From assembly GCA_040751795.1 (NCBI GenBank), contig JBFMHR010000001.1, positions 64,001 through 128,000 of the forward strand: a stretch of 64,000 nucleotides of DNA, in the 5' to 3' direction. The notes below the pieces were generated by a model. The model did no database searches. It saw only the letters and a list, made by a program, of their open reading frames with translations, and was not told where the DNA came from. Source of the DNA: Thermoplasmatota archaeon. GTDB taxonomy: Archaea; Thermoplasmatota; Thermoplasmata; UBA10834. The position numbers were made by a program, and so were the translations under genes. The stretch's first letter is position 1. Each line of letters starts with the position of its first letter. Positions 10,497 to 45,056 of this stretch are shown here, in pieces.

Positions 10497-10609
10497 GACA
10501 TGTGACCGCCAAAGGGTTTATGACCGATGGTGGCAGTCCTTAACAGCGTCAAGGGCCTGCGCCCGTGCGCGCGTGTGGGAGAGGGGGCCCTGACGGAGGG
10601 AGGAATGCC

Positions 10610-19182: not shown

Positions 19183-20166
19183 ATGAAGCCGAGCATGATC
19201 GTCCACGGCGGGGCGTGGGACATACCTGACGACCAGGTCGACGCCCACGTGAAGGGATGTGCTGCGGCGATGTGTGCCGGAAGGGACCTCCTCCTGGGCG
19301 GGGCCTCGGCGCTCGATGCGGTCGAGGCGGCGGTCTCCACGATGGAGGACGACCCCATATTCGACGCCGGGAGGGGCTCCGTGCTCAACCAGTCGGGGCA
19401 GGTCGAGATGGACGCGATTATAATGGACGGCTCGACTCTGAGGTCCGGGGCCGTCGCTGCGATTAAGCGCATGCGGAACCCCGTGAAGGTGGCGCGGCGC
19501 CTTATGGACGGGACCCAGTTCTCGATGCTCGCCGGCGACGGCGCCCTGAGGTTCGCCCTCTCGAACGGGTTCGAGGAGTGCACGGAGGAGGACCTCCTGG
19601 TCGGGAGGGAGCTCGAGGACTACAGGGAGTACCTCAGGACGGGGGTGCTCCATACAAGGGAGGAGTTCTCCGGGAGGCCTCAGGACACGGTGGGCGCCTG
19701 CGCGATGGACGTGGAAGGGCACCTCGCGTGCGCGACCTCCACCGGCGGCACCAGGAGGAAGATCGCCGGCCGCGTGGGGGACTCGCCCATAGTGGGCGCG
19801 GGCGCGTACGCGGACGACCTCCTCGGGGCGGCGTCTTCGACGGGCTGGGGCGAGAAGATCATGGCCGTGGTGCTGGCCAAGACGGCGCTTGAACTCCTCA
19901 GGGACGGGAGGGGTGCCTACATGGCCTGCGAGGGGGGACTGGAGGTGCTGGCGAGGCGCGTGGACGGCCTCGGCGGGATCATAATGGTCGACAGGAACGG
20001 GGCTGTGGGCCTGCACCACAACACGCCGCGCATGGCATACGCGTTCTTCGAGGGCGCATCTGGCCGAGAGGAGGACGGGGTCAGGAGGAAGGCTGGGCCG
20101 GCCGTGCGACGGCATCCCGGTCCTTGCAGCCAGGCGGTCCGCACATGTACGACTCGACCTCCGTGA
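19183..20166 (+). CDS. Isoaspartyl peptidase / L-asparaginase (Ntn hydrolase)
   Basis: IVHGGAW, EMDAIIMDG, DTVGA (Thr nucleophile), TSTGG, GRVGDSP. Confidence 0.93.
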   Translation: MKPSMIVHGGAWDIPDDQVDAHVKGCAAAMCAGRDLLLGGASALDAVEAAVSTMEDDPIFDAGRGSVLNQSGQVEMDAIIMDGSTLRSGAVAAIKRMRNPVKVARRLMDGTQFSMLAGDGALRFALSNGFEECTEEDLLVGRELEDYREYLRTGVLHTREEFSGRPQDTVGACAMDVEGHLACATSTGGTRRKIAGRVGDSPIVGAGAYADDLLGAASSTGWGEKIMAVVLAKTALELLRDGRGAYMACEGGLEVLARRVDGLGGIIMVDRNGAVGLHHNTPRMAYAFFEGASGREEDGVRRKAGPAVRRHPGPCSQAVRTCTTRPP

Positions 20167-20956
20167 GCAGCTCCTCGTGCTCCTCGCGCGAGATCATGAA
20201 CGTCTTCCTGAGCATCTTCAGTATGTCGTCCTCCGGTCCAGAGATCTTCCCGTCGGTCAGGGCCACCTCGAGCACGCCGCGGTAGATCCTGAGGAACTCC
20301 ATGTGGTCCTGCGCCACCTTCTTCAGTATCTCGCCCTCGAGCAGCTGGTGCTGCGACTCCGATATCTGGAGGTGCTTCCTGAGCTCCTCGATCAGGAACC
20401 GCTCCGTGGCCGTGACCTGGCCGTCCCTCCAGGCGGTCTGGAGGGCACGCTTGTAGATGTCCGAGGAGCGCTCCTTCGCCTCGAGGGCCTCGCGCTTCTT
20501 CGCGTCGACGCTCAGCAGGTCGGGGAGGGTCAGCTCGCCCTTCGCGATGGCCTCCCTGACGATGTCGCAGTAGGTGATCCTCACAGGGGTCGCGTCGTCG
20601 ACCTCGCTGACCTTCATCCTCCGGGTGCGTCCATTGTCCCTTACCTCCACCTCGGTGTCGCCCACCCGGTCGCGTATGTCGCAGGCCTTCGAGTAACCCG
20701 CAGAGGAGAGGTAGTAGCCGTTCATCCGCTGCTTCATGCCCTGTATGTGGGCCTTCCTCTCGACGATCAGGTTCTCCTTCATCAGATCGTCCAGGTACTT
20801 CGACAGGTGCTTCCTCTGCACCCCGGTGCAGTAGGAGATCGTCTCCTGTATGAGGTCGGAGGGGAGCTCGAACCTGTCCTCCATGTGGCGGAAGTCCACG
20901 AGGTACAGAAGGATCCGCTCCTTGCTGGTCAGAGAAATGATGTCATCTATTGGCAT
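20081..20956 (-). CDS. Winged-HTH protein with two C-terminal TerB-like helical repeats
   Basis: N-terminal wHTH (ERILLYL...QETIS...VQRKHLSKYLDDL...YYLSSAG); repeats YKRALQTAWRDGQVTATE..L and YRGVLEVALTDGKISGPE..L. Confidence 0.65.
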   Translation of the reverse strand: MPIDDIISLTSKERILLYLVDFRHMEDRFELPSDLIQETISYCTGVQRKHLSKYLDDLMKENLIVERKAHIQGMKQRMNGYYLSSAGYSKACDIRDRVGDTEVEVRDNGRTRRMKVSEVDDATPVRITYCDIVREAIAKGELTLPDLLSVDAKKREALEAKERSSDIYKRALQTAWRDGQVTATERFLIEELRKHLQISESQHQLLEGEILKKVAQDHMEFLRIYRGVLEVALTDGKISGPEDDILKMLRKTFMISREEHEELLTEVESYMCGPPGCKDRDAVARPAQPSS

Positions 20957-21064
20957 GGATGCCGTAATCTCACTATCTTATATATGCGCCTTGCTGAGGT
21001 TCCTGCAGCCATCCTCGGAAAGAGTTAAGGCGCAGGGGCTGGATAACCGGAACGGGATGATGGG

Positions 21065-21157
21065 TTGATAGACAAGAGGGCGTTGCTCTTCCTGTTCATT
21101 GTTCTCATGGCCGCCTTCGGGGCGATCGCGCTCATCATATTGATCTCAGGGAGCTGA
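21065..21157 (+). CDS. Putative 30-aa single-TM membrane peptide
   Basis: TTG-initiated MIDKRALLFLFIVLMAAFGAIALIILISGS; below the ORF-track cutoff. Confidence 0.5.
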   Translation: MIDKRALLFLFIVLMAAFGAIALIILISGS

Positions 21158-21462
21158 GGCGGCGGCAAGGGCTCCTCCCTTAGGTTGGGGCGAAGGGCCC
21201 GCGCACCTCCGAAATCGGCGCGCCGGCTTCGATTCTCGTCGCTGAGACCATTTAAATAAGACACATTATATACCTACTTTGAATATTTCATATTGTATAT
21301 ATTCCGACATATGCCCTAGGGCGTCCAGATTCGAATGGAAGCCGTCCGAACACCGACATGACGCGCCGATTCTGTCACAATATCGATGTTAATATAATTA
21401 CATGGATATCTCCAAGTTGGTAACGGGGAAACCATATAATACGCCGTGGGCTTAGGACAGTC

Positions 21463-21595
21463 CGACGAGCATGGAAGCGCACAAATCCGGCCCATCGGAT
21501 TCTTCCGCCAAGGAAGGGCTACCGCGCAGACCATGCTAGGTTCCGCCGAAGTCCGATGGGATGCCGGGCCGGTGGAACTGTCGCAACAGGAGGTG
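21463..21595 (+). ncRNA. Putative structured RNA leader with loop-loop/pseudoknot pairing
   Basis: Downstream of BRE/TATA-like GGGGAAACCATATAAT (21425-21440); several complementary segments (see findings); ends in SD AGGAGGTG. Confidence 0.5.
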
Positions 21596-21603
21596 CAGAT
21601 GTG

Positions 21604-21729
21604 ATGAGACAGGCAGGCGTTTGGAGCACGATCAAGCAGGTCCAGCTTGAGAGGCAGCTCCTCTGGGTCCCCAGGACGCAGAGGGCGAAGCTCAGAGCCT
21701 ACGTCGCTGGCAGCAAGTTCAACGAGTGA
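21604..21729 (+). CDS. Unannotated 41-aa basic small protein
   Basis: Strong SD AGGAGGTG, then MRQAGVWSTIKQVQLERQLLWVPRTQRAKLRAYVAGSKFNE with GC3-rich codons, followed by a pyrimidine/T tract. Confidence 0.65.
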   Translation: MRQAGVWSTIKQVQLERQLLWVPRTQRAKLRAYVAGSKFNE

Positions 21730-21783
21730 GCTTCAAACCCCTTCACACCTGTTTTTCCGGTTCGTTGGATGGACAGGGGCGGG

Positions 21784-23118
21784 TCACACCCCGACCCTGT
21801 TCCTCTGGCGCCTGAACCAGTCCTTCATGAGCCCGCGGAGCGTGGCCGGGTATTTGACCGGGTCCTCCAGCTTGAAGAACCATAGCGCGCAGGCGGCCCT
21901 ACCGAAGGCGGATATCGCGTAGACCGCCCCGAGGGCCAGGACGAGGTCCTGGGCGTAGAAGTCGAGGAAGAAGACCGCGAGGTACCCCCCGAGCACCGAC
22001 CCGACGAAGGTCGCTATCCCGATGAGGGTGTTGTAGACGGCGAAGTACTCCCCCTTCTTCTCCGCCGGGGCGACGTCCAGGACGTACGCGAAGAAGGCGA
22101 CGTTGGCCATCGCGGTGGCGAACCCGAGCGCCGCGTTGAGGACGTAGATGTGCCACACCTCGGTCGCGAGCGCGTACACGATGGGCACGGAGATGAAGGC
22201 GAACCTGGAGATAAGGATCTGGGGCATCGGCCCTATGACGTCCAGGAGCCTGCCGACCTTGGTCTGGAAGAAGAGCGCGGCCCCGGTCGATATGACGGTC
22301 ATCACGGCGATCTCGAAAAGGGTCGCCTCCAGGACGTCGATGTATGTCAGGTACAGCAGCGGCCATATCAGCGACATGATGAAGTTGAACACGGACTGCA
22401 GGACCACCAGGTTCCTGAAGTACAGGTTCTCGGTCAGGTCTGATATGAATATGAACGACCTCAGGCCGAAGGCGAATATGGTCTTGGGCGAGGCGTAGAC
22501 CCTCCTCTTCTCCTCCCTGACCCTGAGCAGGAGGATGGAGCCGGCTATCCCGCTGGCGCCCGCTATGAAGAAGGGAATCGAGTAGATGGCGAAGGCGCTC
22601 CCACCCTCGGGCATGATGTAGCCCGCGAGCATCGTGGCGATGAGGCTGGCCACCGAGGAGACGGCGAAGAACCTCCCCATGATCGCCCCCCTGTTCTTGG
22701 GGGTCGTGACGTCCCCGACGAGGGCGGACCAGGTGGGGATCATCATGGAGCCGATGAACATCTGCAGGGCGACCATGAGGATGAGCTGGCCGGCGCTCAT
22801 GGCCCCCAACATGAAGAAGTACATCGCGAAGGAGAGGACGCCGCCGACCATCAGGAACGGGATCCTCCTGCCTAGGAAGTCGCTCAGCTTCCCCCAGGGG
22901 ACCTGCATGACGGTGGGGAAGAGGTTGACGAACGCCTGGAGCCAGCCCAGCTGCGCTGGGGTGGCCGCGAGGTGTATGGCGAGGGCCGGGACGAACGGGT
23001 CCGCCATGCCCTTGCCGAAGTTGACCGCCGCCTGGTTGGCGTACATGGACGAGAAGGGGTCAGCGCTGCCGCTCTCCCTCACGTCTGGCCTGCGCGGCGG
23101 CTCTCTAGGCAAGGGCAC
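21784..23118 (-). CDS. MFS transporter
   Basis: About 12 TM; motif A WGKLSDFLGRR and VGRLLDVIGP. Confidence 0.9.
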   Translation of the reverse strand: MPLPREPPRRPDVRESGSADPFSSMYANQAAVNFGKGMADPFVPALAIHLAATPAQLGWLQAFVNLFPTVMQVPWGKLSDFLGRRIPFLMVGGVLSFAMYFFMLGAMSAGQLILMVALQMFIGSMMIPTWSALVGDVTTPKNRGAIMGRFFAVSSVASLIATMLAGYIMPEGGSAFAIYSIPFFIAGASGIAGSILLLRVREEKRRVYASPKTIFAFGLRSFIFISDLTENLYFRNLVVLQSVFNFIMSLIWPLLYLTYIDVLEATLFEIAVMTVISTGAALFFQTKVGRLLDVIGPMPQILISRFAFISVPIVYALATEVWHIYVLNAALGFATAMANVAFFAYVLDVAPAEKKGEYFAVYNTLIGIATFVGSVLGGYLAVFFLDFYAQDLVLALGAVYAISAFGRAACALWFFKLEDPVKYPATLRGLMKDWFRRQRNRVGV

Positions 23119-23276
23119 CCCATCCGATGACCGGAATCAGTCCCACCATGTATATCATACTTGGCAATGGGAGGGGCTCCAGGCCTCCCTGGAGGGGGGC
23201 GAGGGGGGTGGGCCGCTCGGCGCCAATCAATAAGGCTTTATATCAACACGAGGCGATACAGGGAATGGTGGGATAC

Positions 23277-23417
23277 TTGGTCAAGGCCTACTGTGTCAAG
23301 TGCAAGAAGTCTATTGAGATGAAGGACGCGAAGAAGGTCAAGCTGAAGAACGGGAAGCCAGCGACGAAGGGCGTCTGCCCGAAGTGCGGCACGAAGGTCT
23401 TCAGGATCGGCGAGTGA
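23277..23417 (+). CDS. Small basic Zn-ribbon protein (DUF5679-like)
   Basis: AYCVKCKK..EMKD.....LKNGKPATKGVCPKCGTKVFRI; TATA-like TTTATAT upstream. Confidence 0.82.
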   Translation: MVKAYCVKCKKSIEMKDAKKVKLKNGKPATKGVCPKCGTKVFRIGE

Positions 23418-29351: not shown

Positions 29352-29390
29352 ATGAGAAACGGCGGAAGGGGTTTGGATCCTCCTGGCGGC

Positions 29391-40451: not shown

Positions 40452-40472
40452 GCCCGGGACGACGCAAACCCC

Positions 40473-41198
40473 TTATCGGTTTCTCATTCCCCCGATGCCA
40501 GGGAACCTCAGAGGTGCGGTCCCCGAGAACGCAATTGGGCTGAGCGCGTCCGTGTCGACGTCCGCCAGGAGCGGGGACATGTCCCTCAGCCGCTCCTCCC
40601 CGACCACCTCCACCCCCCCGGCGACTATGCTCATCGCCGGCAGGACGAGGAGCTCCTGCTCCTCGGAGTACAGGAAGCAGCCGTCCTTGAGGCCCGCCCG
40701 CGGCCCCTCCCTGGGCGCGAGCGACGGGTGGATGTGGCCCATGACCGTGGGCCTGCCGTCCAGCGCCCCCTCGTGCCCGTGGACGATCCGGACGCCGGAG
40801 ACGGAGGCCTCCTTCAGGAACGGGACCCCCAGCCCCCTCAGGATGGAACCCAGGTAGTTGTCGTGGTTGCCCCTGACCACCTCGAGCGGGACGGAGCCGC
40901 TGAGCCCCTCGACGAACCTGGACACGTCGTCCCACTCCTGGGAGAGGTTCCTGGAGAAGTTGTGCTTCAGGTCCCCCGCGACGACGAGCTTCGACGGCCT
41001 GACGCGCTCGACGAGGTCGAGTATGGTCCGCTGGACCTTCCTCGTCTGGACCCTGGGCAGGCTCAGGCCGTCCTGCTCGAGCGCCGCCTCGCACCCGAGG
41101 TGGAGGTCCGCGACCACCATGACGTCCTCCGGGGTAACCAGCGCAGCGCCGCCCGGGAGGACCCTCAGCCTGTCAGAGAGCCTGTATCCTCTCGCCAC
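40473..41198 (-). CDS. Metallophosphoesterase (ICC-like, COG1407-type)
   Basis: ADLHLG, GDLKH, GNHD, HGH, GHIHP. Confidence 0.9.
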   Translation of the reverse strand: MARGYRLSDRLRVLPGGAALVTPEDVMVVADLHLGCEAALEQDGLSLPRVQTRKVQRTILDLVERVRPSKLVVAGDLKHNFSRNLSQEWDDVSRFVEGLSGSVPLEVVRGNHDNYLGSILRGLGVPFLKEASVSGVRIVHGHEGALDGRPTVMGHIHPSLAPREGPRAGLKDGCFLYSEEQELLVLPAMSIVAGGVEVVGEERLRDMSPLLADVDTDALSPIAFSGTAPLRFPGIGGMRNR

Positions 41199-44981: not shown

Positions 44982-45056
44982 GGCCGGGGTGGGGTAGTGG
45001 TATCCTTGGGGACTGTGGATCCCTTGACCCGGGTTCGATTCCCGGTCCCGGCCCCA
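44982..45056 (+). tRNA. tRNA-His (GUG) with encoded G-1 and 3' CCA
   Basis: Acceptor GCCGGGG/TCCCGGC, anticodon arm GGGGA-CTGTGGA-TCCCT, T arm CCGGG-TTCGATT-CCCGG, C73 discriminator; TATA-like TTTATCTA upstream. Confidence 0.96.

Follow-up and report, generated by a model that had tools for sequence, protein, structure and literature searches.

The window analysed here is a stretch of 64,000 nucleotides from a Thermoplasmatota archaeon (GenBank assembly GCA_040751795.1, contig JBFMHR010000001.1, forward-strand positions 64,001–128,000, renumbered from 1). Positions 21461–21729 (+) of this window are one transcription unit, which consists of a TATA promoter, a folded 5′ leader (about 140 nucleotides), a strong Shine–Dalgarno (SD) site, an open reading frame (ORF) of 41 amino acids (aa) and a terminator-like 3′ end. 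A self-contained unit of this composition had been proposed from the sequence in an initial annotation, and all of its parts are present. The leader is a two-armed, family-specific RNA, new within a known kind: the structured cis-acting leaders. The two-arm structure is real and is confirmed by covariation. We see an even chance that the RNA is a new cis-acting leader which controls translation of the small helical-hairpin protein encoded after it, via a factor that binds arm 1, and we favour a protein as this factor. Coordinates are given in Table 1.

Comparative analysis of the leader RNA

Leader and ORF were found together, once per genome, in 41 of the 46 genomes from a single family of uncultured Thermoplasmata with four genera (g1–g4); two of the five genomes without them are only 55–60% complete. 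When the 41 leaders were aligned to a covariance model, 83.8% of 1219 cells paired, compared with 33–37% when the partners were slid, and 27 of the 33 pairs had changed on both sides (174 cells). The corresponding values for 34 leaders were 85.4% paired, 33–40% when slid and 26 of 33 pairs changed on both sides. No measure was reached by any of 500 shuffles of either alignment (five measures were used for the 41 leaders). Two alignments that had not been fitted to the model served as checks on model-fitting bias. Eleven g2 and g3 leaders aligned in MAFFT were 89.5% paired (31–45% when slid) with six compensatory pairs, and RNAalifold on a MAFFT alignment of 11 g4 leaders recovered both arms, with seven compensatory pairs among the 30 predicted. 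A plain MAFFT alignment of all 30 leaders yielded no structure in RNAalifold, since it misaligned the stems between genera, a problem that the covariance models overcame. Covariation among homologues, which the initial annotation had named as a check, is thus present family-wide in both arms.

From its 5′ end, the leader consists of a conserved CGAU(A)AG, arm 1, a short junction, arm 2, a spacer of 6–10 bases and GGAGGUG, followed by the start codon. Arm 1 corresponds to helix 1 of the model (12 pairs, eight changed on both sides, 87.5% paired in 41 sequences). It is a long interrupted helix, followed in most lineages by an inner helix, and encloses 28–45 bases. The motif GGAUUcUUCCCCC in its interior was recognized by eye in the alignments of all lineage types, and its counterpart in the window, GGAUUCUUCC, is a candidate recognition site as judged from the sequences. 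Pairing of the arm-1 interior differs by genus: in g4 its pyrimidine tract folds into a local hairpin, in which G–C has replaced A–U as a compensatory change, and in g2 the tract has a different 5′ partner. Arm 2, which corresponds to helices 3–5 of the model (16 pairs, 14 changed on both sides, 80.8–88.1% paired), is a two- or three-tier hairpin with an entirely different sequence in each genus. A K-turn and a T-loop in arm 1 were considered and rejected by eye against their consensus.

When trimmed to the conserved RNA, the leader of the window gave a folding z score of −2.5; the mean across 37 homologous leaders was −2.9, with 30 of the 37 below −2. For the leader with its flanks (21450–21610), the minimum-energy fold contains both arms but does not exceed shuffles in stability (z = −0.89). 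By our own sum from the pair types, 109 paired cells of the 41 leaders are G–U. These would be A–C on the other strand, and therefore the plus strand is the RNA. A minus-strand reading was rejected (z = −0.33, with the G–U pairs becoming mismatches), and reverse-strand model matches were taken as weak by-products of the palindromic stems.

The first covariance model was built from 11 leaders of genera g2 and g3. It placed the RNA directly 5′ of the ORF in 30 of the 30 loci first fetched and in seven of seven further loci, and gave one match per genome in 39 of the 46 family genomes. One of these 39 matches (expectation value E = 0.0028) had no ORF after it and was counted as false, while four exposed diverged ORFs that had been missed by the protein profile. 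The model missed the window's own genome and one other, though both carry the RNA. The second model, built from 34 leaders, gave a single copy in every one of the 15 sampled family genomes and no copy in 135 genomes drawn from 28 other families. In 41 of 41 loci an ORF of 37–43 aa directly follows the RNA. The locus is single-copy, syntenic and vertically inherited. A DNA search of 61 related genomes recovered the whole 331-base unit from six congeneric genomes (75–80% identity); more distant genomes yielded the ORF part. A profile of the small protein matched 36 of the 45 other genomes of the family (four genera, one match each); outside the family, in 355 genomes of the same class, its only matches were four short ones (E = 0.002–0.008), which were taken as noise. 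Against 1.84 billion representative proteins, the profile gave 23 matches, nearly all of 40–63 aa, with two long ones that arose via short repeats.

The initial annotation had recognized no known RNA family, and searches against Rfam 15 (4227 models) agree with this. At the gathering score the whole window matched only a tRNA (44983–45053); at E up to 10, the region 21200–21900 gave two chance-level matches, both outside the leader. Six homologous loci searched at E up to 1 gave one sub-threshold iscRS match (locus L059, 2319–2426), outside the leader at 1348–1500. Full-text literature searches listed no paper that describes an RNA of this sort in Thermoplasmata.

Table 1. Features of the leader–ORF unit and its surroundings (window coordinates)
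Feature	Position	Strand	Remarks
Winged-helix + ENT/TerB-like protein	20081–20956	−	Divergent neighbour; Pfam matches; context, not part of the RNA
Second small ORF, 30 aa (MIDKRALLFLF...)	21065–21157	+	One hydrophobic helix; conserved in all four genera
Upstream promoter element GGTAACGGGGAAACC	21419–21433	+	Includes AAA resembling a B recognition element (BRE); aligned across 35 homologous promoters
TATA box ATATAATA	21434–21441	+	In 35 loci, TATA-like octamer at a constant ~24–28 bases 5′ of the conserved CGAU
Structured 5′ leader RNA, new family	21461–21603	+	Covariance model R2 match; identity rise at 21463; no Rfam match
Closing stem CGAC/GTCG	21463–21466/21580–21583	+	Complementary in window
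Arm 1	21468–21537	+	Long interrupted helix (AGCAUGG/CCAUGCU, GCGC/GCGC) around conserved interior
Arm 1, outer AGCATGG/CCATGCT	21468–21474/21531–21537	+	Complementary in window
Arm 1, inner GCGC/GCGC	21477–21480/21524–21527	+	Complementary in window
Extension CCGG/CCGG	21487–21490/21564–21567	+	Complementary in window
Kissing loop, 5′ half CCCAUCGGA	21491–21499	+	Candidate; perfect 9-base complement of 21552–21560
Kissing pair CCCATCGGA/TCCGATGGG	21491–21499/21552–21560	+	Complementary in window
Motif GGAUUCUUCC	21497–21506	+	Best-conserved unpaired motif of the arm-1 interior; family form GGAUUcUUCCCCC
Hairpin CTTCC/GGAAG	21502–21506/21512–21516	+	Complementary in window
Arm 2	21539–21579	+	Hairpin adjoining the ribosome-binding site; structure kept, sequence differs between genera
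Arm 2, helix GTTCCGCCG/CGGTGGAAC	21540–21548/21570–21578	+	Complementary in window
Kissing loop, 3′ half UCCGAUGGG	21552–21560	+	Candidate, in arm-2 loop; first base varies (U, C or G)
SD site AGGAGGTG (AGGAGGUG)	21588–21595	+	8 bases 5′ of ATG
Small ORF, 41 aa	21604–21729	+	Basic, predicted helical hairpin, orphan family; open and 37–43 aa in 41/41 genomes
3′-end region, AAACCCCUU then T5	21735–21756	+	TTTTT at 21752–21756; motif after stop in 26/26 loci inspected
AAACCYYTT	21735–21743; 29366–29374 (−); 40466–40474 (+); 10511–10519 (−)		Genome-wide motif
96-aa ORF	23127–23417	+	C-terminal DUF5679 zinc ribbon; between MFS gene and acetyl-CoA-synthetase-like gene

The leader in the window and its closest relatives

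Every helix of the initial annotation was recovered in a scripted pair check at, or nearly at, the positions first assigned, with standard pairs only. Conservation in the seven closest genomes was uneven. The outer helix of arm 1 (AGCAUGG/CCAUGCU) is 93.9% paired, the inner GCGC/GCGC is invariant and 100% paired, and arm 2 is 77.8% paired with one compensatory pair. The CTTCC/GGAAG hairpin forms in the window and is paired at 68.6% in these genomes. The closing stem CGAC/GUCG and the CCGG extension are present in the window but are not conserved (28.6 and 53.6% paired, respectively).

The initial annotation had also joined the loops of the two arms in a kissing loop or pseudoknot. Their complementarity is kept in close relatives, but it lacks covariation and is confined to one sub-lineage of one genus. 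In the window, a perfect nine-base complement between the arm-1 interior and arm 2 is rarer than chance, being reached in 34 of 5000 shuffles, and in 13 of 5000 when only the arm-2 loop was considered. The nine-base pairing is kept in seven of seven close genomes with 96.8% of cells paired. Seven of its pairs show no variation, an eighth carries a C>U change on one side only and stays paired as G–U, and the terminal A–U pair is broken in two genomes. Six further leaders of this type (type A), from metagenome contigs, have both eight-base kissing cores unchanged and differ in the adjacent loop bases. No covariation was found in the kissing loop across these seven genomes and six contigs. In a sister lineage within the window's genus the homologous positions pair at only three of nine (read by eye), and in g2–g4 arm 2 is capped by short loops such as GAAA or UUCG that hold no equivalent of the kissing half. 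From the sequences, a loop–loop contact is plausible in the sub-lineage of the window; it is unproven and not family-wide. A family-wide loop–loop or loop–SD interaction was rejected, as duplex energies were no better than those with a shuffled arm-1 interior. An inner 4 bp helix in type-A arm 2, considered as a rival of the kissing loop, was set aside because its register was ambiguous and its support weak.

Shine–Dalgarno site

GGAGG is the same in all 41 leaders and GGAGGUG in almost all of them. The strand CACUUU, which lies just to the 3′ side of arm 2, can pair with GAGGUG of the SD site, with at least five of six pairs formed in 27 of the 30 leaders of g2–g4. When all column pairs were scanned, no longer run of paired columns emerged outside the model. 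In the g2–g4 leaders that carry CACUUU, the SD site often has a predicted probability of 0.2–0.4 of being unpaired. In g2 and g3 the same CACUUU is also the 3′ strand of the basal helix of arm 2, so that the two pairings are mutually exclusive. The arrangement fits a cis-acting leader: a constrained, sensor-like arm comes first, and after it a hairpin that varies freely and adjoins a strong SD site that never changes.

The small protein

The 41-aa basic ORF that the initial annotation placed directly after the SD site is present and conserved. Its coding nature is shown by codon-position variation in the sequences: third positions vary most, both among close relatives (0.27, compared with 0.15 and 0.15 at the other two positions) and among 38 ORFs (0.50, compared with 0.37 and 0.37). 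An in-frame stop lies just 5′ of its start in four of the seven close relatives; on this ground, and because one-base indels break the frame, a longer ORF of 57 aa from the ATG at 21556 was rejected. The overlap of ATG, TGA and ATG in front of the ORF (ATGTGATG, 21599–21606), to which the initial annotation had drawn attention, does occur in the window, but elsewhere it was found only in one near-identical metagenome contig.

The net charge is +5 to +12 in 41 of 41 proteins and +6 in that of the window. On average the 41 proteins have 10.1 lysine plus arginine and 1.8 aspartate plus glutamate residues, and the longest hydrophobic run is five. AlphaFold2 predicted two helices, residues 3–19 and 24–40, with a predicted local distance difference test score of 75.7. 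Sequence searches of Pfam (41 members, E up to 10, no Rop family), NCBIfam, PADLOC and the PDB gave no match for the small protein. Nothing above 0.88 and no families were found in the ESM Atlas, and a Foldseek search of the PDB gave nothing at E below 2. By its charge and two predicted helices, the protein looks like a nucleic-acid binder.

Promoter, 3′ end and transcripts

Mean pairwise identity among the seven closest genomes is 0.88 for the upstream promoter element and TATA box, and 0.49 in the spacer from TATA box to start (the 21 bases after the TATA box). It then jumps to 0.79 at 21463 and is 0.79 in the leader, 0.81 through the ORF and 0.52 in the 3′ untranslated region (UTR). The jump, together with the spacing from the TATA box, would place the start of transcription near 21463. 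Covariance model R2 matches positions 21461–21606 (G000:C1:85461-85606) with 42.9 bits (E = 7.8 × 10−10). The element at 21419–21433 is possibly also a transcription-factor site.

The T-tract noted after the ORF in the initial annotation is present (Table 1). The motif AAACCYYTT occurs four times in the window, compared with 0.29 expected from shuffles. Three of the four copies sit 5 to about 20 bases past a stop codon and two of these are then followed by GTTTCTCATTC; of the three copies at other loci, two directly follow the stop codons of other genes. AAACCYYTT is probably a lineage-typical signal of transcript 3′ ends. In genus g4 (loci L059, L061, L062 and L065), the 90 bases past the stop codon of the small ORF hold a conserved insert, about 70 bases long, between the stop codon and the AAACCCUUU motif. 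The insert contains hairpin-like repeats (CCCUUUGACAAAGGGG..., CCGGAGUCAGCUCCG) and may be an additional 3′ UTR structure.

In line with the transcription unit envisaged in the initial annotation, contigs from RNA libraries (four runs of one study, 90–99% alike) span leader and ORF together. These cover 21477–21798, 21531–21871, 21514–21758 and 21564–21727; three bridge the leader–ORF junction with at least 31 letters on each side and the fourth reaches 21564. There were no such contigs on 20900–21476 and one short contig in the MFS gene, which proves nothing about silence. An adapter-like loose end before 21477 in a single contig was not taken as a transcription start.

Neighbouring genes

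In 18 of 18 genomes from the four genera, tblastn located the divergent gene for a winged-helix and ENT/TerB-like protein at the corresponding position (53–84% identity; one match covers the C-terminal two thirds only), and mean column identity of the protein is 68% in 15 sequences. As a guess, the conserved GGTAACGGG at 21419–21427 could be an operator for this protein. The 30-aa ORF lies about 440 bases 5′ of the leader on the same strand and 108 bases from the start of the divergent gene. In 29 homologous loci it gave 22 tblastn matches with E below 1 × 10−3, spread over all four genera, and it has no NCBIfam match. Its product, a predicted membrane protein, may belong to the same small-protein circuit as the 41-aa protein. 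Between the 30-aa ORF and the A+T-rich promoter region (36–47% G+C), a G+C-rich block (up to 70% G+C) was observed at 21150–21240 (+). On the downstream side, the MFS gene is present in g1–g3 and absent from g4; in the g4 loci examined, the first large ORF after the small ORF is the synthetase-like gene.

Proposed function and alternatives

In the mechanism that we propose, arm 1 would be the sensor for a trans-acting factor, and arm 2 with its 3′ flank would be the expression platform. The factor would be a protein, for which the encoded basic helical hairpin itself would be the first candidate (autoregulation). In the lineage of the window, which is without the anti-SD strand, the 9 bp loop–loop contact of the two arms may provide the coupling instead. 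We infer the existence of regulation as well as its direction and trigger. We lean to a protein as trigger because the RNA occurs in one family only and precedes one regulated gene, the product of which resembles a nucleic-acid binder.

Several results weigh against this proposal. None of the 11 leaders of genus g1, that of the window included, has the anti-SD strand, so the platform model does not cover the window's sequence; the SD site of the window is predicted to be mostly free (0.85 unpaired). The anti-SD helix is without covariation because the SD site never varies: it is 85.2% paired, compared with 47–67% when slid, and shuffles do equally well. In g4 the anti-SD strand is separate from arm 2, the two helices can coexist and nothing forces a switch. 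Across 37 leaders the arm-1 interior has no general excess complementarity to arm 2 or to the SD site (mean z of −0.3 and +0.4, respectively). The counts for 34 and 41 leaders rest on model-fitted alignments, which are biased towards structure, and the RNA-library contigs give no strand, ends or level and may include DNA carry-over. Finally, the only grounds for preferring a protein to a metabolite are that the distribution is narrow, that one gene is regulated and that its product is basic.

The main rival, a metabolite or ion riboswitch, would use arm 1 as its aptamer, with the ligand altering arm 2 and access to the SD site and so controlling a small regulatory protein. Such an aptamer would account for conserved unpaired bases framed by covarying helices (27 of 33 pairs changed on both sides) and for the alternative pairings at the SD site in g2 and g3, and there is precedent in structured leaders before short orphan ORFs and in the glutamine aptamer that controls IF17 (see below). 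The leader would then resemble the cyanobacterial glutamine riboswitches that precede short ORFs. We nonetheless regard a riboswitch as unlikely, since one family and one gene provide no regulon that points to a ligand, the arm-1 interior pairs differently among genera, which is unusual for a binding pocket, and no Rfam riboswitch model matches. Taken further, and held just as tentatively, the leader would represent a new archaeal riboswitch class in which the arm-1 interior binds a metabolite and switches translation of a basic regulator protein of 40 aa, which might, for example, be a small inhibitor that acts on an enzyme or on the winged-helix/TerB-like protein encoded next to it. If true, it would be an archaeal counterpart of the glutamine riboswitch–IF17 circuit. 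In a bolder variant, equally tentative, the helical-hairpin protein would recognize the loop–loop complex of its own leader as Rop does, which would make the locus a self-contained RNA–protein feedback module. It is quite unlikely, in our view, that the structure is constitutive or thermal, with the arms shielding the 5′ end of a short mRNA and a weak, wobble-rich anti-SD hairpin tuning or gating translation with no ligand. A mere stabilizer would need no set of about 15 unpaired arm-1 bases conserved across four genera, and the anti-SD hairpin is missing in g1; in the window the SD site does not lie in the weak U-rich hairpin of a fourU- or ROSE-like RNA thermometer, a feature seen in 27 of the 30 leaders of g2–g4. 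Where the CACUUU/GAGGUG hairpin is present, three of its six pairs are G–U, a likeness to fourU-type thermometers, and the freedom of the arm-2 sequence to vary and the lack of excess long-range complementarity would also suit a thermal or constitutive role.

There is a slim chance that the RNA is a product in its own right, either as a small RNA or as the RNA component of a particle that also contains the basic protein, and that it is released from, or acts within, a dual-function transcript. The leader is as conserved as the ORF and the encoded protein is small, basic and helical. In addition, 13 of 13 type-A sequences have unchanged kissing halves amid loop bases that do vary, which would suit a protein that recognizes a loop–loop complex. 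Against this, no terminator or T-tract separates RNA and ORF in the window, RNA-library contigs cross the junction, and no second copy or target is apparent. The initial annotation had further suggested a self-cleaving ribozyme or a toxin-like locus, and we consider a ribozyme or a type I toxin–antitoxin-like locus hardly credible. The window does have a compact pseudoknotted fold and a small ORF with a structured leader. The pseudoknot is, however, not conserved in the family, and no Rfam model of a ribozyme (hammerhead, twister, hepatitis delta virus-like, pistol or hatchet) or of a toxin–antitoxin RNA matches at E up to 10. A toxin is also at odds with a basic protein that is not hydrophobic, with no hydrophobic run above five and the net charge of +6 in the window, and with a locus that is single-copy, syntenic and vertically inherited.

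Comparison with known systems

The nearest described situation is the Downstream-peptide or glutamine-II motif (RF01704), which is found in the same 5′ UTR setting before a short orphan ORF. According to one report, structured leaders precede ORFs of 17–100 aa of no known family in the Downstream-peptide motif and glnA RNA (PMC2864571), and according to another, a glutamine aptamer in the gifB 5′ UTR controls the small factor IF17 (PMC6212724). These RNAs are cyanobacterial and marine, not archaeal, and the RF01704 model does not match even at E up to 10, so the likeness is one of context only. The leader is also roughly double the length of these motifs and carries two long arms. The crcB (fluoride) RNA is present in both bacteria and archaea according to PMC2864571. 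Archaeal thiamine pyrophosphate (TPP; RF00059) and fluoride/crcB (RF01734) RNAs are likewise cis-acting structured leaders, but neither model matches the leader. Both classes are widespread and regulate transporters or enzymes, whereas the leader is limited to one family and one small ORF.

In autoregulatory leaders of genes for ribosomal or other RNA-binding proteins, the product binds its own leader and blocks initiation. These systems share with the present locus a conserved structured leader by the SD site, a small, very basic protein and a narrow range; the product here is no ribosomal protein and of no known family, and it is only proposed to bind the leader. ColE1 Rop/Rom with the RNA I–RNA II kissing complex is alike in its small helical-hairpin protein and complementary loops. 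Rop is not known to be strongly basic. No Pfam Rop match was found in the 41 members, the loops here lie in one molecule and their pairing is restricted to one sub-lineage.

To our knowledge, very few cis-regulatory RNA classes are known in archaea, where structured regulatory leaders are rare. The leader adds a compact candidate for which the comparative evidence, drawn from 41 sequences in four genera and showing covariation at most pairs, is unusually clear, and it is tied to a single small-protein family that is equally uncharacterized. Both the RNA of about 140 nucleotides and the peptide of 40 aa can be synthesized for studies of binding, folding and translational control. The locus also holds two conserved small proteins that gene callers may skip, one basic (41 aa) and one membrane (30 aa). 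Because both ORFs lie beside a conserved regulator-like gene, they point to an uncharacterized small-protein circuit in this lineage.

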